From the NCBI GenBank assembly GCA_964609965.1, contig CAZSTS010000001.1:3191-67190 (forward strand): a stretch of 64,000 nucleotides of DNA, written 5' to 3'. Position numbers and translations under genes: made by a program. Position 1 is the stretch's first letter, and every line of letters starts with the position of its first letter. The DNA comes from an uncultured Nitrospirales bacterium. GTDB lineage: Bacteria > UBA10199 > JADGCS01. This document shows, in pieces, positions 3,018 through 62,315 of this stretch. The notes below the pieces were generated by a model. That model worked only from the letters and a program-made list of their open reading frames with translations, was not told the origin of the DNA and did not search any database.

Positions 3018-3034
3018 TGGCAGGGCAATTGCAT
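3018..3034 (+). promoter_or_regulatory. Sigma-54 (RpoN) -24/-12 promoter candidate TGGCAGG-N4-TTGCAT
   Basis: GG (3019-3020) and GC (3031-3032) are separated by exactly 10 nt. TGGCA and TTGCA cores match the consensus. It lies 39 bp upstream of the ATG at 3073. Confidence 0.55.
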
Positions 3035-3072
3035 ACATAGATAGAGAGAATCAAAAAGCAAAAGGAGTAGTT

Positions 3073-3420: not shown

Positions 3421-3478
3421 AAAAGGGGTCAACTAGAGTATAATATTTAATTAATGTAAACTGTAATGAGAGGTATCT

Positions 3479-3964
3479 ATGGCAGGCGAAATTGTAATTC
3501 CAAAATTTGAAGTAAGTATAACAACCCCAAGTAATAAAGAAGCTTCAGCAGATGTCGCATTAGACAAAAATGGTAAAAAAGCGCTTTCTGGAGTTGTAAC
3601 TCCTGGTGAAAATTATGCAAAAGCGGATCCAAAGCAAGAATATACAAAACCAACACTTAGAGCGAGCTTACATGGTACCTCGCCTCTGAAAGCAGAATCT
3701 GCTGTAGCTAAAAATGAATCAAAAACCTATGGAGAGATGACTCTCATTTGTGATCTTGGAACTGTGGAATGTAATTTAGAAACAGCTGGAATAGGCGTTG
3801 CAGCAGCAGAAGGTGATGCTGTTACTGAAGTAGAAGAAATTTCAGTAGAAGCTATGAAGGAGCAGTTTACTATTACTCAGTTTGTGGATAGAATGGCTGA
3901 TGCAGGAAATGAAAGCTTGGATGCATTAGCAGACTTAGAAGATTCAGAAGATGAGATAGTATAA
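3479..3964 (+). CDS. Hypothetical acidic protein (161 aa)
   Basis: ORF following the 3073 gene, ending in an acidic tail DLEDSEDEIV. Followed by a hairpin+T terminator. Confidence 0.55.
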   Translation: MAGEIVIPKFEVSITTPSNKEASADVALDKNGKKALSGVVTPGENYAKADPKQEYTKPTLRASLHGTSPLKAESAVAKNESKTYGEMTLICDLGTVECNLETAGIGVAAAEGDAVTEVEEISVEAMKEQFTITQFVDRMADAGNESLDALADLEDSEDEIV

Positions 3965-4028: not shown

Positions 4029-4072
4029 CTATTCTTCCATAGGTGCATAGGCGCTTAGGAGCCTAGGCGCGT

Positions 4073-9061: not shown

Positions 9062-9077
9062 TTTATTTAAATCTGAT

Positions 9078-10340
9078 TTATTCAGTGTCTGTTTTTTCCT
9101 CAGCGCATGCAGAGGTTGTGTCTGAAGTCAGTGCTGTTGAAAAATCAATTGAGCTTGCAGTTGTTGTATCGATAATTTTCAAAATAAAATTATCATCATC
9201 ATTCAATTCAGCAACTGATGCCTTTCCAAAAGAAGTAACACATTCTGATAGAGGGACATATTTTGAAGAAACAATGCTGGAGCCAATTTCAACACAACGG
9301 TTTGCTGTAGGGCTGTCTTTGTGTGTTGCTACTTCTTCAGGGGTGTCAAAAAGGCCATCTCCGGCCCAGCGCTGTCCCCAAATATGAGTTCCGTTAGACT
9401 TGATTCGATAGATATAAGAATTTGGAGACTGATCACGAACCTGAATAACCTCAAATTCTTGTGTAGACTCAGTGAGGCTGCCTGCATAACCAGCTATGTT
9501 AATACCTTCGTCTTCTCCATTGCTCGAATAATAAGCCGGGGATCCTGTTCCAAAAAAGATAAAATGATCATTTGCCGTGTCTTTTACACCGCCATAAAGC
9601 CAGTCAGAATTCAGTGAGACAAAGTATTGAGTGTTTGCAGAATCACCGTCATTGATAGTCCACCACATACCTCCACCATCAGTATCTGAGCTTTTTTGAT
9701 AGCCAGAGAAATTTACAATTTGTGGAATGTCCCATGAAGTGTACCAAGGTATGGCAGAAGAGATGTCAACATCTGTGCCTTCAACAGAATAACATGTATC
9801 CATGTTTTCAATATCGGCAATCATTGAGTCAAAACGACAGGGATCTATTCCAAAGTTAACATAGCGGCCTGAAGAGTCAGTCGAACATGAATCTGGGTCA
9901 TCTAAAACTGTAGGGATGATGTAATCAGAGCCTTCGCTGCCGCTTGAGCAATCAGTACATGTAAAACAAGTGCCTGCTGTGAAAAGATCATCAGTGCATT
10001 CGTCATTGTAATCTATGCCCCAAAGGCGTGACAGAATTTCCCCAGCCATGGAGTCTGCTCCATTTGCTTCTGTTAAATAAGGACAATCAGTGTAATCTTC
10101 ATCACATGTGCCAGCTAGAGAAAAAAGAGTAGATAAACTTGCACTGATACTTAGGTTTACACCACCTGTTTTTAGGCCTGCAGGAACTTGATTGCTGAAT
10201 GTCTCGCCAAAAACCGCGTATGTGGTTGCTTCCACTGTAGTTGTCCCTGAACCAGGAGAGTTTGAGTCAGTTGATGAGCCGCAGCCTGAAATGAAAAAAA
10301 TGCACACCAACGTCACTAATAAAGATAATTTATTTTTCAT
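9078..10340 (-). CDS. Cys-rich lipoprotein, hypothetical
   Basis: Lipobox LVCIFFISGCGSS. No other recognised domain. Confidence 0.6.
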   Translation of the reverse strand: MKNKLSLLVTLVCIFFISGCGSSTDSNSPGSGTTTVEATTYAVFGETFSNQVPAGLKTGGVNLSISASLSTLFSLAGTCDEDYTDCPYLTEANGADSMAGEILSRLWGIDYNDECTDDLFTAGTCFTCTDCSSGSEGSDYIIPTVLDDPDSCSTDSSGRYVNFGIDPCRFDSMIADIENMDTCYSVEGTDVDISSAIPWYTSWDIPQIVNFSGYQKSSDTDGGGMWWTINDGDSANTQYFVSLNSDWLYGGVKDTANDHFIFFGTGSPAYYSSNGEDEGINIAGYAGSLTESTQEFEVIQVRDQSPNSYIYRIKSNGTHIWGQRWAGDGLFDTPEEVATHKDSPTANRCVEIGSSIVSSKYVPLSECVTSFGKASVAELNDDDNFILKIIDTTTASSIDFSTALTSDTTSACAEEKTDTE

Positions 10341-33413: not shown

Positions 33414-33500
33414 AGTTACGCTCCTACGAGCCTATGCTCCTACGATCCAATGACAAGAAAACATTGGTTCGTCGGTACATCGACTCATTGGCACCAGGGT

Positions 33501-36916: not shown

Positions 36917-37001
36917 CCTAAGCACCTGTGCACCTAGGAGCCTACGAAAAAACAGTACTGAATGTTTAACGTAGGATCATAGGAGCCTAGGAGCGTAGGA
37001 G
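36917..37001. repeat. TAGGAGC-word degenerate repeats (tandem SD-like AGGAG copies before ispD)
   Basis: Reading: gcacctaggagcctacg...cataggagcctaggagcgtaggagcaaaaaaATG. Confidence 0.6.
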
Positions 37002-37008
37002 CAAAAAA

Positions 37009-37710: not shown

Positions 37711-37886
37711 AAAACTGTAATTGCACATATGAGCCTTGTTCACGAAAAGGCACATGCTGTGATTGCATCTTGTATCATGTCAAAAGTCGACAACTACCTG
37801 CTTGCTGTTTTCCGACAAGTGCTGAGAGTACCTATGATCGTTCCTTTGAATTTTTTGCAAAACTTGTGAATGATGGGGATGTTTAA
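37683..37886 (+). CDS. Small Cys-rich protein (67 aa), hypothetical
   Basis: CNCTYEPC...GTCCDC...ACC, 11 Cys in total. Its 3' end is duplicated at 39060-39147. Confidence 0.5.
37797..37886 (+). repeat. Direct repeat copy A (~88 bp) flanking the kinase cassette
   Basis: About 88% identical to 39060-39147, including a 34-nt identical core ttcctttgaattttttgcaaa...cttgtgaatgatggggatgttt. Confidence 0.8.
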
Positions 37887-38917
37887 TAAGATCTAGGTGC
37901 TTTATATTTTGGTGGATTGTCTTGTAACTTTCGAAATATTGCTAAAAGTGGTTTGTGAGGAATGCGTTTCGTAGGATCTTTTTCTAGCATTCCAGCGAGG
38001 AGTTCATTGAGCTCAGGGCAATTTTCTAAAGGAATCATTGTTGCTGTTTCATGGATGTCTTTGAGAAAATAGTAAGGCATGTATTCATCAGTTTCTTCAT
38101 CTCTCATTTCTGCATAAGGATCTTGACCAGTTAACATGCGATAAAGGCAAATACCAAGGGCGTAAACATCTGTAGTTTGGTGTAATTGATAGTTCCAGAG
38201 TTCTGGAGCCATTTGAACAGGTGAGCCTTTTGCTTTTATGTCTACAACAAGATCTTCACTAGAAGGTATTTTCTCTCCATAAAAATGGCCTCCAATACCC
38301 CAATCACCAAGCATATAATCGAAAACATTACCTGGCTTGACATCACCATGGATAGTTAGAATACCTTTGGCTTTACCAGCCTCTAGAACATCAGATAATG
38401 CTTGTAGAATAAAACCTGCAAAGAATAATGCGCCAGTTACTTTGAGGTGTCCAAGCAATTCTAGGATATCTTTTAAACATTCGGTACCTACATCTCTAAT
38501 AAAGCAATAAGCGCCATTTACATACCCATGATCATAATATCGTGGAATATGAGGATTATCTAATGGATTCAGAATCTCACTGGCATAGGTAAATTCTGCT
38601 GACATAGTTTTGACTGCATTTTCTCTAAACTTGATATTGCTGGATGGTTTTTGTGTTATCTTTAATCTATCTCTAGGTGCGATTCTACGAATTCTATCAT
38701 GAAGATATCTAGGAGGATTTTTTTCATCGCTTCTAGCTACATTTATTGCCAAGGGTGGTAATTGATTATCTTGATTTTTGGGTTCTAATAAAAAAACATC
38801 ACAAAAAGAACCACTTCCTAAATACTTTGATACAGTATATAATTCAGCGGCCTGATTTAGGGGCATATCAAAATTTGATGAGCGGGTTAAATGACTTGTT
38901 AGCTTAGGAGAAAACAT
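37883..38917 (-). CDS. Soluble eukaryotic-like Ser/Thr protein kinase, atypical (HGD catalytic loop, DWG instead of DFG)
   Basis: Gly-rich loop GSGSFCDV, catalytic [16 protein letters not shown]. No TM segment. Confidence 0.75.
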
Positions 38918-39059: not shown

Positions 39060-39147
39060 ACCTGCTGTTTCCCGCCTAGTGCTGAGAGCACATACGATCG
39101 TTCCTTTGAATTTTTTGCAAATCTTGTGAATGATGGGGATGTTTGAT
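39060..39147 (+). pseudogene. 3' remnant of the Cys-rich small gene (direct repeat copy B), no start codon
   Basis: In-frame ...[32 protein letters not shown] directly after a TAA stop. Confidence 0.7.
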
Positions 39148-48411: not shown

Positions 48412-48423
48412 GTGAGGCATATT

Positions 48424-49851
48424 ATGTCAGATAAAGTAAATAAAGAAGTCGATGTGACAACAGCAATCATTGCTCCTGATGAAACAAGAGATCTTATATC
48501 ACTCAGACGCTATCAGCTTGTGGTTGTTGCTAAAGATAGTAATCGCCGAAAGTTTGAATTAGGTAAGAAAAAGGTGATTAAGATAGGAAAGAAAACCGAC
48601 AATGATATTGTAATTAACGACAAAACGGTTTCTCGTTATCATTCTGAGATTTATGTTACAGATGATAATACATATCTCTTAAAAGATAAGAATTCTACCA
48701 ATGGAACCACAATCAATTCCATGAAAGTTAAAGAAGCCTATCTTTCACAGGGAGATCTCATTGAAATTGGTGAAACAAAGATCGAGTTTCAAACTTATGA
48801 TGAGTCTGTGCAAATTGAGCCAAGCTCAAATAATTTTTTTGGTGATATGGTGGGAAAAAGTCGAAAAATGAGACAGATTTTTGGTATTTTAGAGAGAGTT
48901 AGTAAAACACAGGCAACTGTTATCATTGAGGGAGAAACAGGCACAGGAAAAGAGTTGGTGGCCAGAGCTATTCACACTAATTCACCACGTAAAGACAAAC
49001 CTTTCATCGTTTTTGATTGTTCGTCTGTGGCACCAAATCTTATCGAGTCTGAGCTTTTTGGACACACTAAAGGGTCGTTTACAGGTGCTCTCAAGGATCG
49101 TTTGGGTGCTTTTGAGGCAGCCAATGGGGGAACCATTTTTCTTGATGAAATTGGTGAGCTCAGCATGGATTTGCAACCAAAATTATTACGTGCGCTTGAG
49201 CAACGTGAAATAAAACGTGTTGGTTCAACAAGAGCCATTAATCTCGATGTTCGTGTAGTCACAGCTACGAATCGAAACCTAAAAGAAGAAGTAAAGGCCA
49301 GTACTTTTAGAGAAGATCTGTATTACCGGCTTTCGGTGGTAAAAATTCAGGTGCCATCTTTACGTGAAAAGCTCGAAGACATTCCATTGCTTGTCGAAAA
49401 AATATTAAGTGTGGCTAGATTTAATCGCAAGGGTGATGGGAGTTTTTATGTGGCACGAATTGAGGACGATGCTTTAAAAATGCTTCAACGTTATCAGTGG
49501 CCAGGCAATGTGCGAGAGCTTACAAATATTCTTGAACGGGCTGTGAGTTTTTCGGAAAATGGCGTGGTCAAGGGAGTCCACCTTCAATACGTGTTTAGTG
49601 AGGTCGAAACAGGTGAGGAAGCCACAGTACGTCTCCAGGGCATTGCCATGGACAGGCCTTTTAAGGAGGCCAAGCAAGCTGTTGTGGAAGAGTTCGAAAA
49701 AGAATATCTCCAAGATCTATTGCAACGTAATAATGGCAATGTGTCTAAGGCAGCTCGCGAAGCCAAGATCGACCGCAAACATCTTCGCAATCTTCTTATC
49801 AAATACGAAATCATCAAGTCTGATGCTGAGTTATTAGAAGATGGGGAGTAA
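48424..49851 (+). CDS. Sigma-54-dependent transcriptional activator with N-terminal FHA domain
   Basis: FHA motif VSRYHSEI...STNGTTIN. AAA+ motifs GETGTGKE, ESELFGH and GAFEAANGGTIFLDEIGEL. C-terminal HTH. Start at ATG 48424 with SD ggtgagg. The ORF-track start is 48412. Confidence 0.88.
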   Translation: MSDKVNKEVDVTTAIIAPDETRDLISLRRYQLVVVAKDSNRRKFELGKKKVIKIGKKTDNDIVINDKTVSRYHSEIYVTDDNTYLLKDKNSTNGTTINSMKVKEAYLSQGDLIEIGETKIEFQTYDESVQIEPSSNNFFGDMVGKSRKMRQIFGILERVSKTQATVIIEGETGTGKELVARAIHTNSPRKDKPFIVFDCSSVAPNLIESELFGHTKGSFTGALKDRLGAFEAANGGTIFLDEIGELSMDLQPKLLRALEQREIKRVGSTRAINLDVRVVTATNRNLKEEVKASTFREDLYYRLSVVKIQVPSLREKLEDIPLLVEKILSVARFNRKGDGSFYVARIEDDALKMLQRYQWPGNVRELTNILERAVSFSENGVVKGVHLQYVFSEVETGEEATVRLQGIAMDRPFKEAKQAVVEEFEKEYLQDLLQRNNGNVSKAAREAKIDRKHLRNLLIKYEIIKSDAELLEDGE

Positions 49852-50065: not shown

Positions 50066-50659
50066 ATGGGTATATTTGGGCAAGCTGCCGATGCATTAGC
50101 TCGTGATAAAGTATTATCAGAACAAACATATGGTGTTGTTGGAGAAACCTTACCAGAAAATTACGATGCGCCAATCGAAATCAAACTTGTGGAAAAAAGA
50201 GCGGTCGGCTCTGAATCTACATATGAATTGAGAACGAAAGTGAGAAAGGATGGACAGGTTTATACACAAACAGATGAACTAAATACGGGGACACATGTTT
50301 GGGACAGTTTAAACAGAATCGAAGTTTATCCCATACCTCAGTATCATGGAATTGATTGTATAGAGGCTAATTCAACTTGTTGGCAGGTTTCGGCTGTGTT
50401 TTTAGGTGAATCAGGAAATTATTACCTTCATCAAAATTCATACCAAATTGGTAATCCAATAGATGGCGACAATGTTTTTTGGGCTACATATGGTTCAAGA
50501 GAATTAACACAAACTTCAGAAGATTATGAACTAGCAGAAATGACAACTAACCAAGATGACAATGAGCTTAAGTTAGTTTTCGAACACACTGATGGTGAAT
50601 CAGAACCATCTGTTGAGACAACAATCCTAGATCCTGGTCCTGGATTTGGTCTGTTGTAG
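50066..50659 (+). CDS. Hypothetical protein (197 aa), candidate toxin/effector partner of macro-domain protein
   Basis: Strong SD aggagg 6 nt upstream of the ATG. No recognisable motif. Acidic C-terminus. Confidence 0.6.
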   Translation: MGIFGQAADALARDKVLSEQTYGVVGETLPENYDAPIEIKLVEKRAVGSESTYELRTKVRKDGQVYTQTDELNTGTHVWDSLNRIEVYPIPQYHGIDCIEANSTCWQVSAVFLGESGNYYLHQNSYQIGNPIDGDNVFWATYGSRELTQTSEDYELAEMTTNQDDNELKLVFEHTDGESEPSVETTILDPGPGFGLL

Positions 50660-50743
50660 AATATTCTATTTGAAATTCCTATTCCAATAGTAATAAGTGA
50701 TATCTCAGTATGGGGTATGAATGAATTGCAGTGAGGAGACATC

Positions 50744-51640
50744 ATGAGGATACCAGCAGTTACGGCAGCGTATGAAGCAGCAGGTCAAATTCCAGCAGTA
50801 TTAGCAGCAACATTGGTAACAACTTCGGCCTGGGCAGGTGATGCAGCTTCAAGTGGTTCAGAAGTTGCTAATTCGAATACAGGAGTACTAAAGCTGTTTG
50901 GTGATGTGTGTGAATTAGCAATAACAAATCCTATTCCTACAATCGCCATAGGAGCAGGTGTAGGTATAGCAGTTCTCGGTGGTGTGTATTTTGGAGTTGT
51001 AAAACCAAAGCTTAGAGATGCTCAATCTGCTATTAGAGGAGCAGCGTTTCTTCTTGGCGAAGCAAGAGGATTAGAACAAAAGGCAGGTATAAGGAGAAGC
51101 GAAATGGCAACATCAGGACAAATCGAAGTTATTCAAGGCAACATTACAGAGCAAAGTGTAGATGCTATTGTGAATGCAGCTAATTCTGATTTAGCTGGAG
51201 GTGGCGGTGTTGATGGTGCAATTCATAGTGCAGCTGGATGGGATGAATTACAAGCTTTGTGCAAACCCTTGGGAGGGTGCCCAACAGGTAGTGCCAAAAT
51301 GACAGGGAGTTGTGGGTTGGCTGAAAGAGGTATTAAGCACATCATCCATGCTGTGGGACCAATTTATGGGAGGAATGCTGGCAGGGACGATGAACTTTTA
51401 GCAGGATGTTATCGAGAATCTTTGCGTCTTGCTGAAGAAAGTGGTGACATCGAGTCCATTGCCTTTCCCGCCATTAGTACAGGTGTTTATGGTTTTCCTG
51501 CAGCTCTAGCTGCCAAGATTGCAGCCAGAGAAATCAAAGCCTTTCTTGCAACAAGTCAAAATGTTAAAAGAGTCGTTTTAGTAGGATATAGTTCTGATTC
51601 AACTAGAGTGCTTGCAAAAGGAGTGAGGAAAGCGCGGTGA
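50744..51640 (+). CDS. Macro-domain (MacroD/YmdB-type ADP-ribose hydrolase) protein with 120-aa hydrophobic Gly/Ala-rich N-terminal extension
   Basis: NAANSDLAGGGGVDGAIHSAAG, AFPAISTGVYGFP. An alternative internal start at 51104, with SD aaggag, would give the macro domain alone. Confidence 0.75.
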   Translation: MRIPAVTAAYEAAGQIPAVLAATLVTTSAWAGDAASSGSEVANSNTGVLKLFGDVCELAITNPIPTIAIGAGVGIAVLGGVYFGVVKPKLRDAQSAIRGAAFLLGEARGLEQKAGIRRSEMATSGQIEVIQGNITEQSVDAIVNAANSDLAGGGGVDGAIHSAAGWDELQALCKPLGGCPTGSAKMTGSCGLAERGIKHIIHAVGPIYGRNAGRDDELLAGCYRESLRLAEESGDIESIAFPAISTGVYGFPAALAAKIAAREIKAFLATSQNVKRVVLVGYSSDSTRVLAKGVRKAR

Positions 51641-51654
51641 TTGTCTCATTTTCC

Positions 51655-51800
51655 AATCCCAGTCCCATTTATGAGACTTAAGTGAGACTCATTTGGGACT
51701 GAAATATCAAATCAATAAGATCTAACCTGTTGATATTTTATCTATAAATATATTTAACTCTTTGGCATGGTTGGTGCAATATAGCTCTTAAAGGAGATGT
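51655..51800 (+). repeat. ~150-bp repeated intergenic promoter element, copy 1 (second copy 53293-53443)
   Basis: About 85% identical to copy 2. Begins cccagtcccatttatgagacttaagtgagactcatttgggactg. Confidence 0.8.
51763..51779 (+). promoter_or_regulatory. Sigma-54 -24/-12 promoter candidate TGGCATG-N4-GTGCAA inside repeat copy 1
   Basis: GG (51764-51765) and GC (51776-51777) are exactly 10 nt apart. Confidence 0.5.
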
Positions 51801-51874
51801 ATGCCTTGCTATACTCAACTTTTTCTTTGTTTTTTTTGAGCGAGAAAAGTATAATAAGATATACATATAGATAT

Positions 51875-52135
51875 ATGTATAAACTACTTTTGTCTGAAGT
51901 TGTTAAAAAGCAGTGTAAAAATATTCCGAGAAAAGACTTGGAAAAGATTAAAAACATCGTTTCAGAATTGAGAAAAGAACCACGACCTAGAAAGTGTAAG
52001 AAGCTTAGTGGTGGAAAACAAGAATATAGAATCAGGTATCGTTATTGGAGAATACTATATTCTGTTTATGATAATAATAATAATAATACCATTGTTGTTT
52101 ATGGTGTTTTGTCAAGGAAGGAGGCCTATCGATGA
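51875..52135 (+). CDS. RelE/ParE-family type II toxin (ORF track start 51797; Met at 51875 fits family length)
   Basis: KKLSGGKQEYRIRYRYWRILYSVYD...TIVVYGVLSRKEAY signature. Contains an in-frame (AAT)5 Asn run. Confidence 0.7.
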   Translation: MYKLLLSEVVKKQCKNIPRKDLEKIKNIVSELRKEPRPRKCKKLSGGKQEYRIRYRYWRILYSVYDNNNNNTIVVYGVLSRKEAYR

Positions 52136-52335
52136 AAACTGTGTCCGTAAAACTTGATGATTATGTACTTAGCCTTTTAAATTCAGAAGCAAAAAAACGA
52201 AAAGTAACCCGTATGGAGATCATAAGATCCTCAATAATCAAATTTCTACTTAGTACAAGTGATGCTGAAGATTTGGAATATATCAAAAATCATAAAAATG
52301 ATAAATTAGTGGGTTTTGATAAGGTGTTTAAGTAA
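52132..52335 (+). CDS. Ribbon-helix-helix (CopG-like) antitoxin
   Basis: KTVSVKLDDYVLSLLNSEAKKRKVTRMEIIRSSI. Overlaps the toxin stop as ATGA. Confidence 0.65.
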   Translation: MKTVSVKLDDYVLSLLNSEAKKRKVTRMEIIRSSIIKFLLSTSDAEDLEYIKNHKNDKLVGFDKVFK

Positions 52336-52405
52336 TCGATCCCAAAACCGCAGTCATTCGTTAGCTACTCGTCGAAGCGCTCATGTCGAGGAAGAAAATG
52401 GCGTG
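52336..52405 (+). pseudogene. 3' remnant of a brnA-like antitoxin gene (~90% identical to 54193-54264), interrupted by in-frame TAG
   Basis: atcccaaaaccgcagtcattcgttagct...gtcgaagcgctcatgtcgaggaagaaaatggcgtga aligns with the end of the 54010-54261 gene. Confidence 0.65.
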
Positions 52406-52451
52406 AGGGGGGTATTTGTAATATTCATAAACATAATGTATTAATTACTTA

Positions 52452-53294
52452 GTGAAAAATCTTCATTACACACCACAGTCTCTCATCAAAAAGTTACAAG
52501 AACTTGATAAAGAATTAGACTGGAAAGAGTTATTAAGAAATGGCTATCAGAAATCTGCTGTTTTTGATGCTGATGGGACTTTGTGGAAAGACAATCTTTC
52601 AGCGAGAATGATAGAAGAAGATACAAGGAATCGAAACCTGTCAGAAAAAGGCCTTAATGCTTTAAATCAGCATTTAATCTATTTCAATCTAGAGCCACAA
52701 GAGACGATTTATTTGGCTAAAGCTAAATTGACTGAAGCTTTCTGGAGTGGAGAACTGTATAAAATAGCAAAAGACCTTAAACCATCTTTGAATGAAGATG
52801 AAGTGCATGAGAAAATATGGAATCATTATAACTTGCTCTATGTTGGTTTATCACCACAGGAATTAGAAGAGAAAGCCACACGTTTTTTGGAGCAGGGTTT
52901 TAAAGATAACTTTTATAAAGGCATGGAAGAGGTTATTCGTTATTTAAAAAGAGCTGGATTTAAACTCTACGTTGTAAGTGCTGGAGTACATGAATTCGTG
53001 ACTGCTGGGGCTCGCTTGCTTGGTTTTAACAAGAGTGATGTTCATGGATTGAAATTAAAGGTGGTAGATGGGCTCATCACTTCCGAAACCGAACTTCCTG
53101 TTACGTATAAGGATGGAAAAACTCAAATAGCAACGAAGTTGTGTGGAGGAAAACCTTTTCTTGTCTTTGGTGATTCTGTCTCTGGTACAGATGAAAAAAT
53201 CTTAGAAGAAGCGTATTTTCCTGTGGCAGTTGAGCCTGAGGGTAAAGATCTAAAAATAGCTCAGGAAAAGGGGTATGCAATATTAGGTTTCTAG
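52452..53294 (+). CDS. HAD-superfamily hydrolase (subfamily IB-like)
   Basis: Motif I VFDADGTLW and motif IV GDSVSGTDE. Confidence 0.65.
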   Translation: MKNLHYTPQSLIKKLQELDKELDWKELLRNGYQKSAVFDADGTLWKDNLSARMIEEDTRNRNLSEKGLNALNQHLIYFNLEPQETIYLAKAKLTEAFWSGELYKIAKDLKPSLNEDEVHEKIWNHYNLLYVGLSPQELEEKATRFLEQGFKDNFYKGMEEVIRYLKRAGFKLYVVSAGVHEFVTAGARLLGFNKSDVHGLKLKVVDGLITSETELPVTYKDGKTQIATKLCGGKPFLVFGDSVSGTDEKILEEAYFPVAVEPEGKDLKIAQEKGYAILGF

Positions 53295-53443
53295 TCCCAG
53301 TCCCATTTATGAGACTTAAGTGGGACTCATTTGGGACTGATGTTTCAAGTCAATAAGATCTAACCCATTGATATTTAATCTATAATTAATTTTCACAGAT
53401 TGGCATAGTTGGTGCTTAATCATATCTTAAGAAAGGAGATATT
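53293..53443 (+). repeat. ~150-bp repeated intergenic promoter element, copy 2
   Basis: Same inverted-repeat head and tail as copy 1. Contains the SD aaggagatatt before the ATG at 53444. Confidence 0.8.
53401..53417 (+). promoter_or_regulatory. Sigma-54 -24/-12 promoter candidate TGGCATA-N4-GTGCTT inside repeat copy 2
   Basis: GG (53402-53403) and GC (53414-53415) are 10 nt apart. Lies 27 nt upstream of the ATG at 53444. Confidence 0.5.
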
Positions 53444-53710
53444 ATGAATAAGTATCCATATGAACTCATAAAGTACTCATCTTTTGGTTATTATGCCTTT
53501 GGTGAAAGTGATTTCATCATTACACCTCCACAGTGTTATCTTGATTTAGGAAGTTCAAAAGCAGAAAGACAGGAGCGCTTTCGCCAAATGGTGGATTTGA
53601 TTCTCAAACATGATTTTCCAGATGCCACATATTGGGAAGAGTATGCTTCAGTCAGCAATCCATTCTGGGTATGTGAACGGTATGAAGAAATTGTGGAAAA
53701 GCTAAATTAA
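53444..53710 (+). CDS. Hypothetical small protein (88 aa)
   Basis: Good SD and a sigma-54 candidate promoter upstream. No motif recognised. Confidence 0.55.
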   Translation: MNKYPYELIKYSSFGYYAFGESDFIITPPQCYLDLGSSKAERQERFRQMVDLILKHDFPDATYWEEYASVSNPFWVCERYEEIVEKLN

Positions 53711-53774
53711 TCTAAGTAGATAAAGGATATATTAATAACATTGCAAATGCATATCAATTTAATATATAATAAAT

Positions 53775-54047
53775 ATGTATTCGTGGGATAATAAGAAGAA
53801 TAAGAGTAATATTCAAAAACATGGTATTAGTTTCGAAGAAGCAAGAGATCATATTTTTGAAAAGGATAATATTTTAGTAACTAATGTAGCCTACAACAGA
53901 GGTGAGAAACGTCATGCAGTGATAGGTAGGTACCTAGATAAATACTATGTTGGGATATTTACTTTCAAAAGAAAAACGATTCGAATTATTTCAGTGAGGA
54001 GGGCTCGCTATGAAGAAGAAAAACAAGCAAAAGAAAAAGGACTTTGA
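53775..54047 (+). CDS. BrnT-family (DUF497) type II toxin
   Basis: SWDNKKNKSNIQKHGISFEEA...RIISVRRARYEEEK matches the BrnT signature. Confidence 0.75.
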   Translation: MYSWDNKKNKSNIQKHGISFEEARDHIFEKDNILVTNVAYNRGEKRHAVIGRYLDKYYVGIFTFKRKTIRIISVRRARYEEEKQAKEKGL

Positions 54048-54261
54048 TCAAGAGTTTTCAGACGGAAAAGTGGCTGTTGATTTTACTGCCGGTGTTAAAA
54101 CAAGTGGACTCAGTCGTGTAAAGAAACTCCCTCCTATGACAATTCCTGCCTGGCTAAATGCCGAAATTGAAAAAATATCCAAATTACAAGCCAATCCCAA
54201 AACAGCTGTCATTCGTCAGCTTCTTGTCGAAGCGCTCATGTCGAGGAAGAAGATGGCGTGA
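54010..54261 (+). CDS. BrnA-family RHH antitoxin
   Basis: C-terminal RHH TIPAWLNAEIEKISK...AVIRQLLVEAL. Overlaps the brnT end. Confidence 0.7.
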   Translation: MKKKNKQKKKDFDQEFSDGKVAVDFTAGVKTSGLSRVKKLPPMTIPAWLNAEIEKISKLQANPKTAVIRQLLVEALMSRKKMA

Positions 54262-54270
54262 TGGATGAGA

Positions 54271-56103
54271 TTACCCCAAAATTTCTTCTAACTTCCTATC
54301 AAATTTCTGATTGAGTACATCAAACTCAAGGCTGAGTTTTTCAAAACGATCAAAAGAGATGTCTATTTCATTCATGGCCTCTTTGGCTTCTTTGGAGAGT
54401 CTCACAATCTCATCACCATTCTGTTCTTGAGAAGCTACTTCTAACTCCTTATGGATCGAGGCTTCTTTGGCTTCTAATTCGAATATTTTCTTCTCAAGTG
54501 CCTTTATCTCCCTTTGTCTTGGTTTCATGACCTTGTCTCGCTCTTCCCTAAGACCTGCTTTGAGTTTACGAAGCTCTTTTTTAGGATGCGTTGTTTGTGT
54601 GCTGGAAGGTTTGTTCTCCTCATCTCCCCAGCCCACTTTTTCTAAGAATTCATCATAAGACCCATTAAAAATAGTCACTTCATCGTCTTTGAAGACAATG
54701 ATTTTATTGGCAATGGATTTCAATATCATCTCAGAATGAGTCACCATGAGAAGAGCGCCTTTGTACCCGCTGATAGCCGTAACAAGCGCATCAATAGATT
54801 GCATATCAAGATGGTTGGTGGGTTCATCGAGTAGGAGTAGATTTGTAGGAGCTGCAATAACTTTTCCAAGCATCACGCGGCTTCTTTCACCTCCAGAGAG
54901 AACAGAGATTTTCTTTTCGGCAAACTCCCCACTAAACATCATGCAACCACAAATAGTTCTCACTCCTGTACGATCTAACCCGGGATTAGAGCTTTGAACT
55001 TCTTCTTCGACCGTGCATCGCTCAGAGAGTTCATCGATGTTTGTTTGAGCAAAGTACCCTGTTTTTACAAGCTCATGCTTATGAACACTTCCTTTTTGAG
55101 GACTGAGTTCTCCTGCCAAAAGTTTGATGAGGGTGGATTTGCCTTTTCCGTTTTTGCCCACAATAGCAATTCTATCATCTGGACGTACAGTGAGAGAAAA
55201 ATCTTTTATGAGAGGAGATGCAGGATCATAGCCAAATTGAAGGTCTTCTATCTTCATCAATTGCTTGCTTTGGATTGGCTTGTATTGAAACTTGAAACCT
55301 AGATTGGCAATTTTCGAAAGGACTTCTTTTTGCGAGAGTTTTGCAATCACCTTCATCTTAGATTGAGCGGCCGAGGCCTTGGTAGCCTTTGTTCCAAAGC
55401 GTTCCACAAATCTTTCCAAATGCTTTCTTTGTCGCTCTTCATTCAAACGTGTTTTTTCATAAACCTCTTCATCTTGTTCTATTTGGGCATATATTTTTTG
55501 GGTATTTCCCCTCATCTTTCTTATCTTTGTTCTATGGATACAGGCAGTGTGGGTTGTTACCTGATCCATAAATCCTCTATCATGTGAAATAATAATCAAT
55601 TCATGTTTCCAATTACGCAAAAACTTGATGATCCAGCGGATTGAAATAACATCGAGATAGTTTGTGGGTTCGTCTAGGAGCAAGAGATGGGGGTTGGAAA
55701 TCAAAACTTTAGCAAGGTTTAATCTTACCTGAAAACCGCCTGAGAATGTCTCGGGTGATTTATCCAAATCTTCTTTTGTAAAACCAAGGCCAAAAAGAAT
55801 CTTTTCTACTTTGTAAGTATCATTAATTTCATCTGGCAAAAGTCCAAGACAACCTTCTTCTAGAATAGTCGGTTTTGTAAAATTGAGGAGCTGAGCCACG
55901 TGCCCGATTCGATAGTCTTTTGGAAAGATAATGCTTCCTGAATCAGTAGAGGATTCTTCAAGGATCATTTGAAACAAAGTTGTTTTTCCAGATCCATTTC
56001 GGCCCACGAGTCCAATACGTTCTCCCTGGTGAATTTGTAAGCTAGCCTTATCAAAGAGGATTTGAGGGCCATAGGATTTTGAGATGTTCTCAATCGTCAG
56101 CAT
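54271..56103 (-). CDS. ABC-F family ATPase (two ABC cassettes, no TMD; EttA/Uup-like)
   Basis: Two Walker A sites (GRNGSGKTT, GKNGKGKST), two LSGG signatures and a linker. Confidence 0.88.
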   Translation of the reverse strand: MLTIENISKSYGPQILFDKASLQIHQGERIGLVGRNGSGKTTLFQMILEESSTDSGSIIFPKDYRIGHVAQLLNFTKPTILEEGCLGLLPDEINDTYKVEKILFGLGFTKEDLDKSPETFSGGFQVRLNLAKVLISNPHLLLLDEPTNYLDVISIRWIIKFLRNWKHELIIISHDRGFMDQVTTHTACIHRTKIRKMRGNTQKIYAQIEQDEEVYEKTRLNEERQRKHLERFVERFGTKATKASAAQSKMKVIAKLSQKEVLSKIANLGFKFQYKPIQSKQLMKIEDLQFGYDPASPLIKDFSLTVRPDDRIAIVGKNGKGKSTLIKLLAGELSPQKGSVHKHELVKTGYFAQTNIDELSERCTVEEEVQSSNPGLDRTGVRTICGCMMFSGEFAEKKISVLSGGERSRVMLGKVIAAPTNLLLLDEPTNHLDMQSIDALVTAISGYKGALLMVTHSEMILKSIANKIIVFKDDEVTIFNGSYDEFLEKVGWGDEENKPSSTQTTHPKKELRKLKAGLREERDKVMKPRQREIKALEKKIFELEAKEASIHKELEVASQEQNGDEIVRLSKEAKEAMNEIDISFDRFEKLSLEFDVLNQKFDRKLEEILG

Positions 56104-56394
56104 GAAAGCGTAATATCAAAAATCACCAAAGATTAACACGTTAAAGATTATCAACCCAAAATTTGGGTTTGAATCCACGGGGTTTACCCCGTAAACATAA
56201 AAAATATTCAGATTCAAACCCCGTTGCTTGCTGCGGGGTCATTGATCTGACGCTTAGGAGCACTGAAATCGTGTGTCCGGCAAATATTGCCTATCATTTT
56301 GATAAATAACCAATATTTTCTCATATATTATTCGCTTAACGGCTGAAAAAAATGAATATATTGCGATATATCAAGGGTTTATATTTGAAGGCTA

Positions 56395-56411
56395 TGGCAT
56401 CAATTTTGCAT
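56395..56411 (+). promoter_or_regulatory. Sigma-54 -24/-12 promoter candidate TGGCATC-N4-TTGCAT
   Basis: GG (56396-56397) and GC (56408-56409) are 10 nt apart. The predicted leader to the ATG at 56425 would be very short. Confidence 0.4.
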
Positions 56412-56424
56412 TAGTAAAGTCATT

Positions 56425-58272
56425 ATGAAAAAACAAAATATATTAAAAAAAGGGTTTATTTGTTTAATTGTGGCCATGGCATGTGTAGCCTTGATTCATT
56501 GCTCATCATCAGATTCAGGATCGAGCGGTGATACGACGCCAAATACTAATGAAGAAGTTCTCGCTCTCACAGCAACAACTCAATCTGTGTGGTATTATCT
56601 TGATTCGGATGGAGATGGAGAAGGAGAAATCGAAAACCAACGCGTGAAATATTATGATTCTAACAGCAATCTTTTAATGAAAACAATTGCTGATACTGAC
56701 GGAAATGTAGAATCTGAGAGAACGTATACCTATGATGCTAATGGCGACCTGCTTAGTATTTCAATTGATTCAGATAATGATGGTTCATACGATTCTATTT
56801 CAGAATATGAGTACAATGATAAATCACAATACATAGGGTTTACCTATAAATCTAAAGACGAAGAAGAAAAATTAGAGACAGTTTATACAAAAACATTTGA
56901 ACGCACTTACAATGATGATGGAAATCTTACAAAAATAGTAGAGAACAAAGACGGAGAATTACAATCAACCACAGACTTTGAGTACAGTAAGTCTGGTGAT
57001 TATTACGGTGTATTTGTAAAAGCTTATTCTTCAACAAATATGATTACTGAGGTAAACTTCTTTCTTTTTGATAGTACAGATGATTACCAGAGCTGTCTAT
57101 TTACAAGTGCCATTGAAGCAATTTGTGATCTTAGAATAGCTTACCACGTTACTTCAGAAATAATATATTATGATGCCAGAACATATGATAGTTACAAAAA
57201 CGAAACGCAAACTCTGTCCTATTATGATGAAACCCCTGAATCAATGGTGCCTTCATTAGATCTTTCCCTTGATAGCTTGTTAGCCTTGTTTACTAATTAT
57301 ACTTCATTCCCAGTAAAAGGTGAGGTCACAACAACGTATACGTACGAAGAAGATTCAGATAAAATACTAAAAAAGAATGTCAATACAGTTTTTACTACTA
57401 CTTATAGTGATGGAGTTGATACAGCACTTGATTCAGAAGATGGAGATAGTACTGATGCAGATGAAACAAGTGCAAGCGTGCAGACTCAAATCGAGATCTA
57501 TTGGTACCTTATTTATGATATAGTAAATGATGCCTATTTTGTTCTAGCAGATGAAGACGGTAACAATATTTCTGATGAAGTAGATGCAATTTTAGCAGGA
57601 GGTGTAGAAGGAATTGCAGGGAGTGCAGAAGAAACTTGTGATGGCAAGGACAATGATGGTGATGAAGAGATTGATGAAGGCGTCATGACGACTTATTACG
57701 ATGATGATGACCATGATGGCTATGGAGACCCTGCTGTGACTTCTGAGGCCTGTAGCAAACCCACTGGTTATGTAGAGAATGCCTTAGATTGTGATGATAC
57801 AGATAGAGAAGTGACAACTGCAGAGGAAACAATATGGTATTTGGATGATGATGGTGATGGTGAAGGAGATGAAACGAGTACTAAAACTGGTTGTGAAGCA
57901 CCTGAAGGTTATGTAGATAATGCTGATGATTGCGATGATACTAACCCAAATGTTTATAAAGATAATGAAGAAGTCTGTGATGGTATAGATAACGACTGTG
58001 ATGATAGAATAGATGAATATTTTACTGAAAGAACCTACTATGCGGATTCAGATGAAGATGGGTATGGGGATCCAGCTTCAACTATTGACTATTGTGAACA
58101 ACCAGATGGCTATGTGACGGATAATACAGATTGCGATGATGATAATGCAAACATTCATCCTGGACATGGAGAAGTTTGTGCTGATGGTGTAGACAGTAAT
58201 TGTGAAGATGGCGATACCGAAACATTCTCAGATGGTGAGTGCACAATGAGATATGCACCTTTTGGGATATAG
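56425..58272 (+). CDS. Lipoprotein with C-terminal MopE-type Cys/Asp-rich 'putative metal-binding' repeats
   Basis: Lipobox VALIHCSSSD. Repeats ...YYDDDDHDGYGDPA...CDGxDNDCD... x4. Confidence 0.7.
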   Translation: MKKQNILKKGFICLIVAMACVALIHCSSSDSGSSGDTTPNTNEEVLALTATTQSVWYYLDSDGDGEGEIENQRVKYYDSNSNLLMKTIADTDGNVESERTYTYDANGDLLSISIDSDNDGSYDSISEYEYNDKSQYIGFTYKSKDEEEKLETVYTKTFERTYNDDGNLTKIVENKDGELQSTTDFEYSKSGDYYGVFVKAYSSTNMITEVNFFLFDSTDDYQSCLFTSAIEAICDLRIAYHVTSEIIYYDARTYDSYKNETQTLSYYDETPESMVPSLDLSLDSLLALFTNYTSFPVKGEVTTTYTYEEDSDKILKKNVNTVFTTTYSDGVDTALDSEDGDSTDADETSASVQTQIEIYWYLIYDIVNDAYFVLADEDGNNISDEVDAILAGGVEGIAGSAEETCDGKDNDGDEEIDEGVMTTYYDDDDHDGYGDPAVTSEACSKPTGYVENALDCDDTDREVTTAEETIWYLDDDGDGEGDETSTKTGCEAPEGYVDNADDCDDTNPNVYKDNEEVCDGIDNDCDDRIDEYFTERTYYADSDEDGYGDPASTIDYCEQPDGYVTDNTDCDDDNANIHPGHGEVCADGVDSNCEDGDTETFSDGECTMRYAPFGI

Positions 58273-58747: not shown

Positions 58748-59692
58748 CTAATAATTTAGATCAAAAGGACAGATTCCATTATACGCCTCACAAACACCAT
58801 TATTGCAAGAATAACCCACACAGCAAAAATTCACACCATCGCCACAAGCTCCGCCTGTCATATTGCAGGCTGATGATGAACAAACACCTGGGGACACGGT
58901 TCCTGTACAATTACAATTTGAGCTTCCTTTCATAATTATGCAGTTTCTGGTCGAAACACAGGTGACTGAGCATTCCCCAGAATAAGTACAAGCTGTCCCT
59001 GTGATCTCCACTGTTTCTTCAGCTTCTTCGGATTCGTTTGTGGTGGAAACTGTTTGTGGTATTGTGACAGAATTGCCCACAATGACTTCAGAAGAGTCTA
59101 TGTCGGCTAGGTTTTGATCATTGCTGATTGCCATGTCAAAAAGATCAAGAGGATCATAAGCATTAGGAGTGGCAACCGGGGTGATATTGAGATCAAAGCC
59201 AATGGAATCGCTTTCTTCATCAAGTGAGGCGGAAATACCTATCCATACCTGCCACGCCCCTTGGTCAGAATCAACGTCTTCAGATTGCGCGCAGAGAAAA
59301 GCCGTTGGCTCACATTCTTCGTCTTTTGGGCACACGCTCATGCAAAATGTAGGCTGGTTTGAGTGAGGGTTTTCCCACTCAATAAACAATGGTGTGATTT
59401 CAGATGGATCAGAAATCGTTAAGGATGAAGGTTGATTGGTGATTATAGGTATTGCTTCCAAATCACTAGCCGCTGGAAGAGGCTCTGTATAGGGAACGAG
59501 CTCTATTTCTTCTCCATCTTCTGCGTAAAGAATGATGTTATCTAAAAAGCAGGTAAGATCATCCGAAGAGCAGGTGTCTTCTGATGTAGAAGGAAAAATA
59601 AAATTTTCGATGGAATCAGGTATAAGGGCTGAACAGGATAAATGGCAGACTAAAAAAAATCCTAAAATAAATGATGTAATAAACTTTTTCAT
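58748..59692 (-). CDS. Secreted Cys-rich protein, hypothetical
   Basis: Signal peptide. C-terminal Cys cluster CSVTCVSTRNCIIMKGSSNCNCTG.... Confidence 0.55.
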   Translation of the reverse strand: MKKFITSFILGFFLVCHLSCSALIPDSIENFIFPSTSEDTCSSDDLTCFLDNIILYAEDGEEIELVPYTEPLPAASDLEAIPIITNQPSSLTISDPSEITPLFIEWENPHSNQPTFCMSVCPKDEECEPTAFLCAQSEDVDSDQGAWQVWIGISASLDEESDSIGFDLNITPVATPNAYDPLDLFDMAISNDQNLADIDSSEVIVGNSVTIPQTVSTTNESEEAEETVEITGTACTYSGECSVTCVSTRNCIIMKGSSNCNCTGTVSPGVCSSSACNMTGGACGDGVNFCCVGYSCNNGVCEAYNGICPFDLNY

Positions 59693-59772
59693 GAACTGAT
59701 TTCAGCGATTTAAGAAGAAATGAAGGGGAAAGCAATGAATAAGTTAATAGGAATAGTTAACAGGAATAGTTT

Positions 59773-62019
59773 TTACTGCACGACGCCGCCAATGACTGAA
59801 GGATCATCAACAGAAGGTTTAGTTCCTATATCAGGTTCAGTGTATTGATTTTCTGGTGTGGTAAGATCTGTTGGCAGAGCCAGGCTGGAACAAGAAGAGG
59901 AGTCCAAAGATGTCATGTATTCTTCAACAACCATGGCCTTTGTATAATATGTGGTTCCATTACAACTGATTTCAGTGCCATTGGGGATCGCAAAGAGAGA
60001 AGACCAATGCTCAAAATTTGAACTTGTATCTTCATTTAACTCATAGGGAATACCCCAAAGTTCACCTACGCCTGCATATTCTAGATAATATGTTCCGTAC
60101 GTTGAATGTGTGTATGTACAAACAAGTGGTTCATCAAATTCCACAACATCTCCGTTGCTGTCTATGAGTGCCGTATATTTATTCCAGGATTCAGGTCCTG
60201 TCTCCCATTGGTATGTGATTTCAGCATCCCAAACATCCCAAGAATCTTCTAAGGCACTGGTGACTAAGTCTCCAGAAGCTAATCCCCAATAATAATAACT
60301 ACCACTATCAATCACGGCTCCAGAGGCAATTGTGACTTCATCTCCATTATAGGTTAACGAATAATCACTAGGGTCAAAAGTATATGTGTAGTAAATTTCA
60401 CTTCCATAAATAAAATCATACACTGTATCTAGAAATGGTGTTTCGTCATTAAGATCACTAGCGCTGAGGGCTCCCTTAGGGCATTGGTAATAACAGTAGA
60501 GGGTGAAAGGGCTGCTGTAATCATCAGGTGTAACAAGGGTCTCAATATCATATGTGATAGATGTTGCATCAGAAAGGCCTTCATAAGGCACAATAACAGT
60601 GACCGAACCGAAACTTTGTTTCCAAAGACTAATCCATTCATCAGTGTAAAATATAAGAGGTGTTTCACTCATAGCTATTGTTGTACAACCATCATCTCCA
60701 CAAGATTCATAAGCAGTCGCTACAAAATCAGTTCCATTCCATTTCACCCAGTAGGAATCTCCAATATAGTCCCAGTACATGAATGTCTCATCCTTGATTG
60801 AAGCAAGTGTGCTGGTGCTCGATGTGATTTTGGTTAATCTACCACCTCCCACAAGGGTAGTGTAATTCTGATCAGTACCTGCTAAGGTCATCCCTGATGT
60901 GACTTCAGTATCATCTGAGAGCCAAATTCCATAGTAACTTGCATAACCATAAATATCTGTTCCTTGAGTAACAGAAAAGCCTCCATTGAGATCTACTTTT
61001 GCTCCATCAGAGTCATAAAGATTGTATTGCCAGACTGAGGAAGTATAATTTTGTCGATCAAGACAGTTATTAGAAGTTTTTGTATCTGAACCATCAACAG
61101 AATCAACTTTTGAGCGATAATAGTTGCTATCAAAAGCCACATAACTTGTCCGTACAAAATCAGCTGCTGTCTCGTAAGAATATGCCTTGCCTGAGTCAGC
61201 TGATGGATTCAACAGAGCATTGACGGTTTGATAGCTTGGTTCAGTCATATAAGGATTTGAGAGTGTCATTTGTAAAGTTGTTTCGCCAGAATCATTAGTT
61301 GTAGCAACAATAAATCCTGTAAGGGCAGCAAGGCCATTACTATCATAGCCTGCTAAATCCATATGAAAGGAACCTAGAGGATTGTCATCGCTGGCCTCTT
61401 CTGTGATAGTCATTTTAGCTTTGATTTCATCAAGATCAGAGGTGGGGTCCTCAGAGCCATGGGTTGTTGTTGATGTGTTTTCAACCCAGATATTAATAAC
61501 TTGATCTGCTGTGTCAGAGGCTCTTGTGCTATTCAGGATCCATCTTTCATAATTAATAGGTTTACCTGTTGATTGGTTTGTTGAGCTTGAGGCCTGGCTG
61601 CTATTGCGATCGCATACATCGTAATTAATAAGAGCAGCATAAGCGCCTTCATTGATCATGCTATCAGATCGCGCTTGTTTGAGTGAGCATAAAATTATGT
61701 TCATTGTATCTAAAGCCTGCATTGACTCTTCATAGACATAATATTCTGTTTCATCTGTTAAATATTCTCCGGCAGTAGGGACTGCAAATTTTGAAATATT
61801 ACCTAGAAAACTATTCGTACTGGCAGATGCAATTGTTTCTTGAGGTGTAATATACGAAACTTGTTCTGGAATGGTTAAGGCATTAATTCCACTTGGTGTG
61901 TCTAAAGGAATGGAAGCTGTTGGAGCGTTATTTCCACAAGCACCAGCACCAAAACAGATAAATAGACAGATAATGAAGAGGTTATTTAAACTGAACCTCA
62001 TTATATAGTCCCCTCTCAA
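59773..62019 (-). CDS. Large secreted/lipoprotein, hypothetical (748 aa)
   Basis: Signal/lipobox ICFGAGACGNN. Ser/Thr/Tyr-rich and beta-rich. Confidence 0.55.
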   Translation of the reverse strand: MRGDYIMRFSLNNLFIICLFICFGAGACGNNAPTASIPLDTPSGINALTIPEQVSYITPQETIASASTNSFLGNISKFAVPTAGEYLTDETEYYVYEESMQALDTMNIILCSLKQARSDSMINEGAYAALINYDVCDRNSSQASSSTNQSTGKPINYERWILNSTRASDTADQVINIWVENTSTTTHGSEDPTSDLDEIKAKMTITEEASDDNPLGSFHMDLAGYDSNGLAALTGFIVATTNDSGETTLQMTLSNPYMTEPSYQTVNALLNPSADSGKAYSYETAADFVRTSYVAFDSNYYRSKVDSVDGSDTKTSNNCLDRQNYTSSVWQYNLYDSDGAKVDLNGGFSVTQGTDIYGYASYYGIWLSDDTEVTSGMTLAGTDQNYTTLVGGGRLTKITSSTSTLASIKDETFMYWDYIGDSYWVKWNGTDFVATAYESCGDDGCTTIAMSETPLIFYTDEWISLWKQSFGSVTVIVPYEGLSDATSITYDIETLVTPDDYSSPFTLYCYYQCPKGALSASDLNDETPFLDTVYDFIYGSEIYYTYTFDPSDYSLTYNGDEVTIASGAVIDSGSYYYWGLASGDLVTSALEDSWDVWDAEITYQWETGPESWNKYTALIDSNGDVVEFDEPLVCTYTHSTYGTYYLEYAGVGELWGIPYELNEDTSSNFEHWSSLFAIPNGTEISCNGTTYYTKAMVVEEYMTSLDSSSCSSLALPTDLTTPENQYTEPDIGTKPSVDDPSVIGGVVQ

Positions 62020-62315
62020 AAATTCCGACTCTTCTAATTCTAACGCAATATGTTTTCATGTGGGTTCATCTACAACACCATGAATTCCATATTCCCCTAA
62101 GATATTGAAGCAATATGCATGCCAGAATCTGCAAATAAAAAGGGCAGAAAATACGGAATGTTACTGAATTATTCAATACTTAGAGGCAAAACTTGCCTAT
62201 AAAATACAGATATTAACTGTAAAATTCCTAATAAAGTGTACTTGGATAGGAATGAGGAAACTTCATAATAACGTCATACTTGCTTGTCCTTTATCTTCTT
62301 GATAACGGCGTGCGT

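Follow-up and report, generated by a model that had tools for sequence, protein, structure and literature searches.

The stretch analysed here (hereafter the window) comprises 64,000 nucleotides of contig CAZSTS010000001.1 (positions 3,191 to 67,190), assigned to an uncultured Nitrospirales bacterium; the locus comes from a marine metagenome contig and occurs near-clonally in many samples. The window contains exactly two copies of a regulatory element, E1 and E2, each with a sequence that resembles the -24/-12 promoters recognised by sigma-54 (RpoN). Downstream of E1 lie genes for a ParE-family toxin and an RHH antitoxin, and E2 leads into a gene for a protein of 88 amino acids (aa), followed by a BrnT/BrnA pair. 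Sequence comparison shows directly how the element is built, that it is duplicated and that its promoter and hexamers are kept in other species; the binding of sigma-54 and an activator, the start sites and the succession of events are deduced from this. The parts of the two copies and the gene behind E2 are as follows.

51650-51803 (+): E1, beginning with the first base of the alignment and ending at the homologue of the second copy's start codon; 86% identity to 53288-53415
51660-51701 (+): head of E1, the proposed enhancer or upstream activating sequence (UAS), AGTCCC-N6-GAGACT-N5-GAGACT-N5-GGGACT with a period of 11-12 bp, inside an 8-bp inverted repeat
51723-51735 (-): tentative site for the integration host factor (IHF) in E1, a perfect consensus WATCAANNNNTTR (TATCAACAGGTTA)
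51763-51778 (+): -24/-12 element of E1, TGGCATGGTTGGTGCA, with GG at 51764-65 and GC at 51776-77; predicted start about 51789; 16.8 bits
51790-51839 (+): Shine-Dalgarno sequence AAAGGAG of E1, ATG at 51801 and a 12-codon remnant open reading frame (ORF) with its stop at 51837-39; the original cargo gene is apparently lost
53288-53446 (+): E2, ending at the start codon of the 88-aa gene
53293-53339 (+): head and proposed UAS of E2, AGTCCC AGTCCC-N6-GAGACT-N5-GGGACT-N5-GGGACT
53361-53373 (-): tentative IHF site in E2, likewise perfect (TATCAATGGGTTA)
53401-53416 (+): -24/-12 element of E2, TGGCATAGTTGGTGCT, with GG at 53402-03 and GC at 53414-15; predicted start about 53427, Shine-Dalgarno sequence at 53432-38; 14.6 bits
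53444-53710 (+): gene of 88 aa that E2 serves, with homology to the C-terminal ~80 aa of Y1_Tnp (IS200-like) transposase-like proteins

In the self-alignment of the window the two copies align without gaps over 51650-51777, and their likeness extends through the Shine-Dalgarno sequence to the ATG (51801 and 53444), where it stops. An initial annotation of this DNA had pointed to GG-N10-GC elements with TGGCA and TGC cores and to an inverted-repeat head in both copies, and both observations hold: the two -24/-12 elements read TGGCAT-N6-TGC with exact GG-N10-GC spacing, and the heads contain a perfect 8-bp inverted repeat (CAGTCCCA...TGGGACTG) whose arms stand 26 nt apart. The hexamers of the head are mostly spaced by 11 bp, i.e., one helical turn (AGTCCC-N6-GAGACT-N5-GRGACT-N5-GGGACT), a pattern for which 0.00 chance occurrences are expected in the window with 3 mismatches allowed. 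The IHF consensus has nine matches in the whole window, three of which are located just upstream of a sigma-54-like site, and those of E1 and E2 differ from each other only at N positions. With the C of GC taken as -12, the predicted leaders are 12 nt (E1) and 17 nt (E2) long, both with AAAGGAG. A 112-aa ORF that opens at an ATG at 51797 (51797-52135), in frame with parE and adding 26 N-terminal residues to it, is probably a coincidence, since its Shine-Dalgarno spacing would be 0 nt and the start homologous to that of the second copy is the ATG at 51801.

The published sigma-54 consensus is TGGCAC-N5-7-TTGCT (PMC12316311). The window has four occurrences of the related pattern TGGCAY-N5-KTGCW where chance predicts 0.41, and an approximate RpoN matrix finds six sites of at least 14 bits where 1.5 are expected. 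Because five of these six top sites are moreover intergenic and aimed at a nearby gene start (3018, 51763, 53401, 56395 and, on the minus strand, 62124), the organism appears to possess a class of such promoters of which E1 and E2 would be members; the motif alone would not settle the matter.

A word-indexed search returned no homologue of the 88-aa protein, and the initial annotation had counted its gene among the orphans. It is not one: an exhaustive search of 1.8 billion representatives retrieved 38 homologues. It aligns to the C-terminal ~80 residues of proteins of 240 aa that consist, in their N-terminal half, of a Y1_Tnp domain; free-standing short forms also exist, and the 88-aa protein itself lacks the catalytic Y1 domain. 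Two of the homologues are informative for the promoter. In another species (loci L091 and L092) a 67%-identical homologue follows a 325-aa Y1_Tnp gene at a distance of 186 nt and is preceded by AGTCTC-N6-GAGACT and further hexamers, then by TGGCATGTCTTATGCA 37 nt before the ATG, the top sigma-54 score of the 13.9-kb L091 locus. A 49%-identical homologue (L093), located beside an AbiEii gene, has ATGAGACT followed by TGGCATCTAAATTGCT. Both keep the AGTCYC/GAGACT hexamers 76-90 nt upstream, and over all four promoters (E1, E2, L091/L092 and L093) TTGGCAT and TGC are invariant at fixed spacing, with the hexamers between -68 and -108 from TGGCA and a leader of 12-29 nt that includes a Shine-Dalgarno sequence. 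The six-nucleotide spacers between the cores vary (GGTTGG in E1, AGTTGG in E2, GTCTTA in L091/L092, CTAAAT in L093), and the DNA around the promoters of E1/E2, L091/L092 and L093 has diverged past blastn detection. Fixed cores with a changing spacer would be the signature expected of a sigma-54 promoter rather than of a recent copy, and judged on these comparisons the -24/-12 motif of E1 and E2 very probably is a real one. For L093 we relied on promoter-anchored coordinates, MAFFT having misaligned its promoter. One further candidate for comparison, P0110 (L094), proved uninformative: here a full-length Y1_Tnp gene is split, the genome has 54% G+C, and there is no sigma-54 motif.

The L091 locus also bears on the origin of the small gene. 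There (8837-10276) the 325-aa Y1_Tnp gene is followed by a 91-aa homologue of its own middle and C-terminal region that appears to be driven by sigma-54, an arrangement which suggests that the small gene arose through partial duplication of a transposase-like gene.

The same comparison bears on the possibility that E1 and E2 are transcribed from an ordinary sigma-70 promoter (TTGGGA-N17-TAAGAT, or with TTGGCA as its -35 box), the hexamers being the operator of a repressor such as BrnA and the GG-N10-GC spacing coincidental. TTGGGA-N17-TAAGAT is present in both copies, our scan lists TTGGCA-N17-TATCTT in the second, and RHH antitoxins often bind repeats one helical turn apart. However, sigma-70 matches are not enriched in the region (18 found against 15.6 expected), TTGGGA/TAAGAT fits at only 8 of 12 positions and is kept in neither L091 nor L093, and the TTGGCA-based pair is absent from the first copy. 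What survives across species is TTGGCAT and TGC at fixed spacing, and L091 and L093 keep the hexamers and encode no BrnA. We thus hold a sigma-70 promoter under repressor control to be very improbable.

A third sigma-54 region of the window carries the same hexamers.

2876-3033 (+): sigma-54 region with the enhancer hexamers of E1 and E2, AGTCCC at 2876, TCCCAATAATGAGACT at 2889-2904 and TGGCAGGGCAATTGCA at 3018-3033, before the p115-p161 operon (3073-3964)

The counterpart of TCCCAATAATGAGACT in the E1/E2 element is TCCCATTTATGAGACT. The operon itself (2876-3964 with its upstream region; L085-L090 in other genomes) encodes a conserved pair of acidic proteins of 115 and 161 aa without Pfam domains, usually found near SpoU methylase and ffh genes. 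We retrieved 42 homologues of p115 and fetched six of their loci. In the resulting seven species TGGCA-N6-TTGCA is invariant before p115, and the other invariant blocks are AGTCCC ahead of GAGACT and CCCA behind it; in the five species measured, TGAGACT, again with AGTCCC before it, lies 120-123 nt upstream of the p115 promoter. A profile built from the six species other than that of the window ranks the p115 site of the window first (E = 1e-5), followed at marginal values by E1 (0.044) and E2 (0.087). Across 1.23 Mb of loci we counted nine places where TGAGACT has AGTCCC no more than 40 nt upstream of it, and eight of these nine lie upstream of sigma-54-like sites. Since the same hexamers precede an invariant sigma-54 promoter of the p115 operon in seven species, the head would best be read as an activator-binding enhancer that this operon and the 88-aa gene have in common. 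The enhancer of E1/E2 being of the same type as that of the p115-p161 operon, one and the same activator probably controls both. To our knowledge the AGTCYC/GRGACT hexamer in an 11-bp array matches the binding site of no characterised activator.

As a single strand the head forms a stable hairpin (-20 and -24 kcal/mol for the two copies, z = -5 and -4), and it might accordingly be asked whether it is the hairpin of a Y1 transposase-like protein of the insertion sequence (IS) IS200/IS605 or REP-associated kind (REP, repetitive extragenic palindrome), i.e., a decayed IS end or a REP-like repeat. The normal left end of IS200/IS605 elements carries a hairpin roughly 100 nt upstream of tnpA, the gene behind E2 is homologous to part of Y1_Tnp proteins, and the L091 element is situated directly behind a full-length one. 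Against this stand the small number of copies, only two, with no second end, inverted partner or target duplication, the missing catalytic domain of the 88-aa protein, and the recurrence of the same hexamers at the p115 operon promoter, which has no adjacent transposase gene in the loci fetched. In addition, the heads of E1 and E2 prefer different pairings and the element as a whole is weakly structured (z about -2 to -2.5), and for these two reasons we read the palindrome as a DNA-binding site. A transposase hairpin is, overall, an account to which we attach little credence.

We therefore consider it likely that E1 and E2 are paralogous copies of one complete enhancer-dependent sigma-54 regulatory region that belongs to a small transposase-derived gene. 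In the unit as we envisage it, a bacterial enhancer-binding protein (bEBP) would assemble at the UAS, an array of AGTCYC/GRGACT hexamers, four to five in number, at about -130 to -90 relative to the predicted start. The AT-rich stretch that follows would possibly be bent by IHF, and would lead to the -24/-12 promoter, TTGGCAT-N6-TGC, a short leader, the Shine-Dalgarno sequence and the start codon. The unit's own gene would be the 88-aa gene at 53444-53710, a derivative of the C-terminal portion of Y1 transposase-like proteins. The segment from the enhancer to the end of brnA would then have been duplicated locally, and the ParE/RHH module would later have taken the place of the small gene, brnT and the larger part of brnA (from just past the start codon to mid-brnA) in the upstream copy.

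Several observations weigh against this reading. The RpoN matrix is our own approximation of the published consensus, and while the scan of the window against a shuffled background shows enrichment of the class, each site alone stays inside the chance range: in simulations of 64 kb the maximum score has a mean of 15.1 bits and a 95th percentile of 17.4 bits. Both copies depart from the consensus at position -14, with G instead of T. The other species do not keep the IHF consensus, L091 having no match and L093 a one-mismatch site only. The matches of the profile to the heads of E1 and E2 are marginal (E = 0.04-0.09) and the two copies are not mutually independent. Given its stable hairpin, the head may have a role in RNA or single-stranded DNA. 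The contigs that carry the locus are 99.98-100% identical and hence offer no polymorphism. Finally, no rpoN gene was found in the window or its 10-kb flanks; its presence in the organism may be deduced from the activator genes and the conserved promoters. Of the former, one lies in the window and a second ~9 kb past its right end. The second (L082 19143-21050) encodes a GAF-domain sigma-54 activator of 909 aa and stands beside nrfH/nrfA-like cytochrome c nitrite reductase genes.

The genes that now lie between and behind the two copies were, in the initial annotation, the very targets of the promoters. The features that bear on this are the following.

51850-51881 (+): the TATAAT of ParE's own (51850-55) and a perfect 10-bp palindrome TATACATATA-GA-TATATGTATA (51860-81, 100% complementary) over the parE start codon, a proposed antitoxin operator
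51875-52335 (+): ParE-family toxin (86 aa; Pfam ParE_toxin, 3.3e-07) and RHH antitoxin (67 aa; RHH_1, 6.8e-04)
52339-52409 (+): remnant of a brnA 3' end, DPKTAVIR-stop-LLVEALMSRKKMA-stop, 90% identical to 54194-54264; right end of the duplicated segment
53741-54261 (+): BrnT/BrnA pair (Pfam BrnT_toxin) with its own sigma-70-like promoter TTGCAA-N18-TATAAT (53741-53770)

The repeat pair 52339-52409 and 54194-54264 corresponds to the 3' end of brnA; in the upstream copy a CAG is changed to TAG, and we therefore regard it as a remnant. As this pair and the two elements have diverged to a similar degree (90% and 86% identity), a single duplication event fits both. The dispersed repeat that had been proposed is thus replaced by one local segmental duplication that included the end of brnA.

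This also affects the suggestion that the element is a mobile promoter-carrying repeat, such as a miniature inverted-repeat transposable element (MITE), or the attC-type boundary of an integron cassette. Such an origin would suit two copies with sharp ends that are flanked by short accessory genes and lie in a segment absent from the closest relatives. Yet terminal inverted repeats and target duplications are missing, there is no integrase within 20 kb, neither the window nor the 1.2 Mb of related loci nor the collection scans yielded another copy, and the co-duplicated brnA fragment fits a segmental duplication; of the explanations weighed here we find this one the hardest to credit.

The upstream layout of ParE would be that of a usual autoregulated toxin-antitoxin (TA) promoter, and the TA genes look like later-arrived neighbours that possess promoters of their own. 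The initial annotation had instead suggested that the TA modules could be under signal-dependent sigma-54 control, exerted by the FHA-domain activator encoded 2 kb upstream. The promoters do look real, the activator gene is only 1.8 kb away on the same strand, and the L093 unit also adjoins an abortive-infection toxin-like gene (AbiEii). Moreover, no convincing terminator separates E1 from parE or the 88-aa gene from brnT, so that read-through from the sigma-54 promoters into the TA genes is possible. Nevertheless, ParE/RHH has brought its own TATAAT and palindromic operator, and any sigma-54 transcription into it would for this reason be read-through rather than the main control; BrnTA likewise has its sigma-70-like promoter. 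The link to ParE appears secondary because the original gene of the first copy is reduced to its 12-codon remnant, and no recognised TA genes lie downstream of the small gene in the homologous units of L091 and L093. Together with the evidence on the activator given below, this makes signal-dependent control of the TA modules unlikely in our view. The sigma-54 reading of the initial annotation accordingly stands as regards the promoter class, mainly through its conservation in other species; it does not stand as regards dispersal, TA cargo and the FHA activator as the cognate one.

The activator gene is present where it had been annotated.

48412-49851 (+): FHA / sigma-54-interaction / HTH_8 activator gene, directly after a Ser/Thr kinase gene; it indicates the use of sigma-54 by the organism and is linked to E1/E2 only by position

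Its closest homologues (80-87% identical) are found in metagenome-assembled genomes (MAGs) labelled Deltaproteobacteria, UBA10199 or simply 'bacterium', and in one case Nitrospirales. In the closest two (L009 and L010, with identities of 86-87%) h314/h748, which correspond to the window genes at 58748-62019, come immediately after the activator gene. Window positions 50066-58272, about 8-9 kb, are entirely missing there (L009 6868-7293; L010 1481-2154). This segment comprises a 197-aa gene, a macro-domain gene, E1, ParE/RHH, a HAD hydrolase, E2, the 88-aa gene, BrnTA, an ABC-F gene and a MopE-like gene, and there is no integrase or tRNA at its edges. Since the segment is missing in L009 and L010, the element sits in a variable region and its proximity to the activator is not a conserved feature, which argues against the designation of this activator as cognate. 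Its conserved neighbour points in another direction: h748, which encodes 748 aa on the minus strand, is preceded by a sigma-54-like promoter in L009, L010 and the window (here TGGCATGCATATTGCT, 62124-62109), and upstream of this promoter stands a GGCA-N5-TGCC palindrome (62185-62197 in the window, 9665-9677 in L009), not the GRGACT hexamers. The same palindrome occurs at 56279-56291, before the sigma-54-like site at 56395 (+) of the MopE-like gene. In both cases it is placed 60-115 nt upstream of the promoter. The promoters of h748 and the MopE-like gene are hence better candidate targets of the kinase/FHA-activator pair than E1 and E2.

The search for further copies of the element, which the initial annotation had called for, brought none to light beyond the two, either in the window or in the 1.2 Mb of related loci, and scans of the genome, metagenome and viral collections produced no genuine match. 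A blastn comparison of the element with 73 loci around activator homologues returned nothing, and neither did a scan of reference genomes for the head, in a collection that did not return the window's own locus either. The one match in the metagenome scan (L006), in a collection that likewise did not return the window's own locus, is a eukaryote-like tandem GGGGACTTTAC repeat and unrelated. The one match in the viral scan (L096, 3178-3197) is a perfect palindrome AGTCTCATTTATGAGACT, 7 nt before a replication-protein gene on a filamentous-phage-like contig; it has no sigma-54 motif and is probably due to chance. Rfam and tRNA scans of the window gave no hits.

Two other kinds of repeats were observed in the window. 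Tandem 8-nt repeats of TAGGAGCN, in three to four units, occur at 36972-37004, 33417-33441 (-) and 4040-4072. The first two arrays immediately precede the start codons of genes at 37009 (+) and 33413 (-), and the third follows the terminator of the 161-aa gene; one conceivable interpretation would be stacked Shine-Dalgarno or GGA motifs, such as sites of a CsrA-like regulator. Direct repeats of 85 nt (37803-37887 and 39063-39147, 91% identical) flank a 344-aa gene (37883-38917, -) and may mark where an insertion ends, or else stem from the duplication of an intergenic region.

Among known systems, the E1/E2 unit most invites comparison with the sigma-54 promoters of the NtrC/NifA type (glnAp2 and nifH, with UAS, IHF bend and -24/-12 element). 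It resembles them in the GG-N10-GC spacing and the TGGCA and TGC cores, in the repeated and partly palindromic sites about 70-110 nt upstream, and in the AT-rich interval, with its tentative IHF site in E1 and E2. It differs in having T at -21 and G at -14 and in its host, which belongs to an uncultured lineage related to MAGs labelled Deltaproteobacteria or UBA10199. Pairs of a Ser/Thr kinase and an FHA-domain bEBP have been described for Myxococcus xanthus. The window pair is similar in that a Pkinase/PEGA kinase gene lies directly upstream of the FHA-AAA+-HTH_8 gene and the two are kept together in relatives; its conserved neighbour h748 has the sigma-54 promoter with the GGCA-N5-TGCC palindrome, and nothing ties the pair to E1/E2. 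With the left ends of IS200/IS605 elements and with REP sequences and their associated tyrosine transposases (RAYT) the unit shares a stable hairpin before a Y1-related gene and, in the L091 copy, the position beside a full-length Y1_Tnp gene, whereas it lacks their second end and multiple copies, encodes a protein devoid of the catalytic domain, and has its hexamers also at a transposase-free operon. The features of autoregulated type II TA promoters, namely the TATAAT with a 10-bp palindrome over the start codon of ParE/RHH and the sigma-70-like promoter of BrnTA, are found here as well, but downstream of E1 and E2 (51850-51881 and 53741-53770), and the element itself is no TA promoter.

A more far-reaching view would take the unit as a portable, activator-dependent expression platform that, in a variable segment, captured new cargo after its duplication, such that one bEBP signal triggers p115-p161, the 88-aa protein and, by read-through, the ParE and BrnT modules. 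If true, this would amount to a signal-triggered growth arrest or defence response that overrides the usual autoregulation by antitoxins; it is a speculative proposal, and we judge it distinctly doubtful. Read-through into ParE and BrnT, if real, would be an unusual case of activator-linked TA expression, and on present evidence it would be incidental. The kind of promoter itself is ordinary and well known, and the added value lies in the enhancer motif for an uncultured lineage. The locus shows how an enhancer-dependent promoter, complete in itself, can through duplication come to stand before unrelated accessory genes. For this uncultured marine lineage it further yields a predicted sigma-54 regulon with at least two classes of targets, the p115-p161 operon and a Y1-derived small protein, and its main value would be the AGTCYC/GRGACT enhancer motif, which can be used for finding targets in the genomes of the group and may help to identify the activator.

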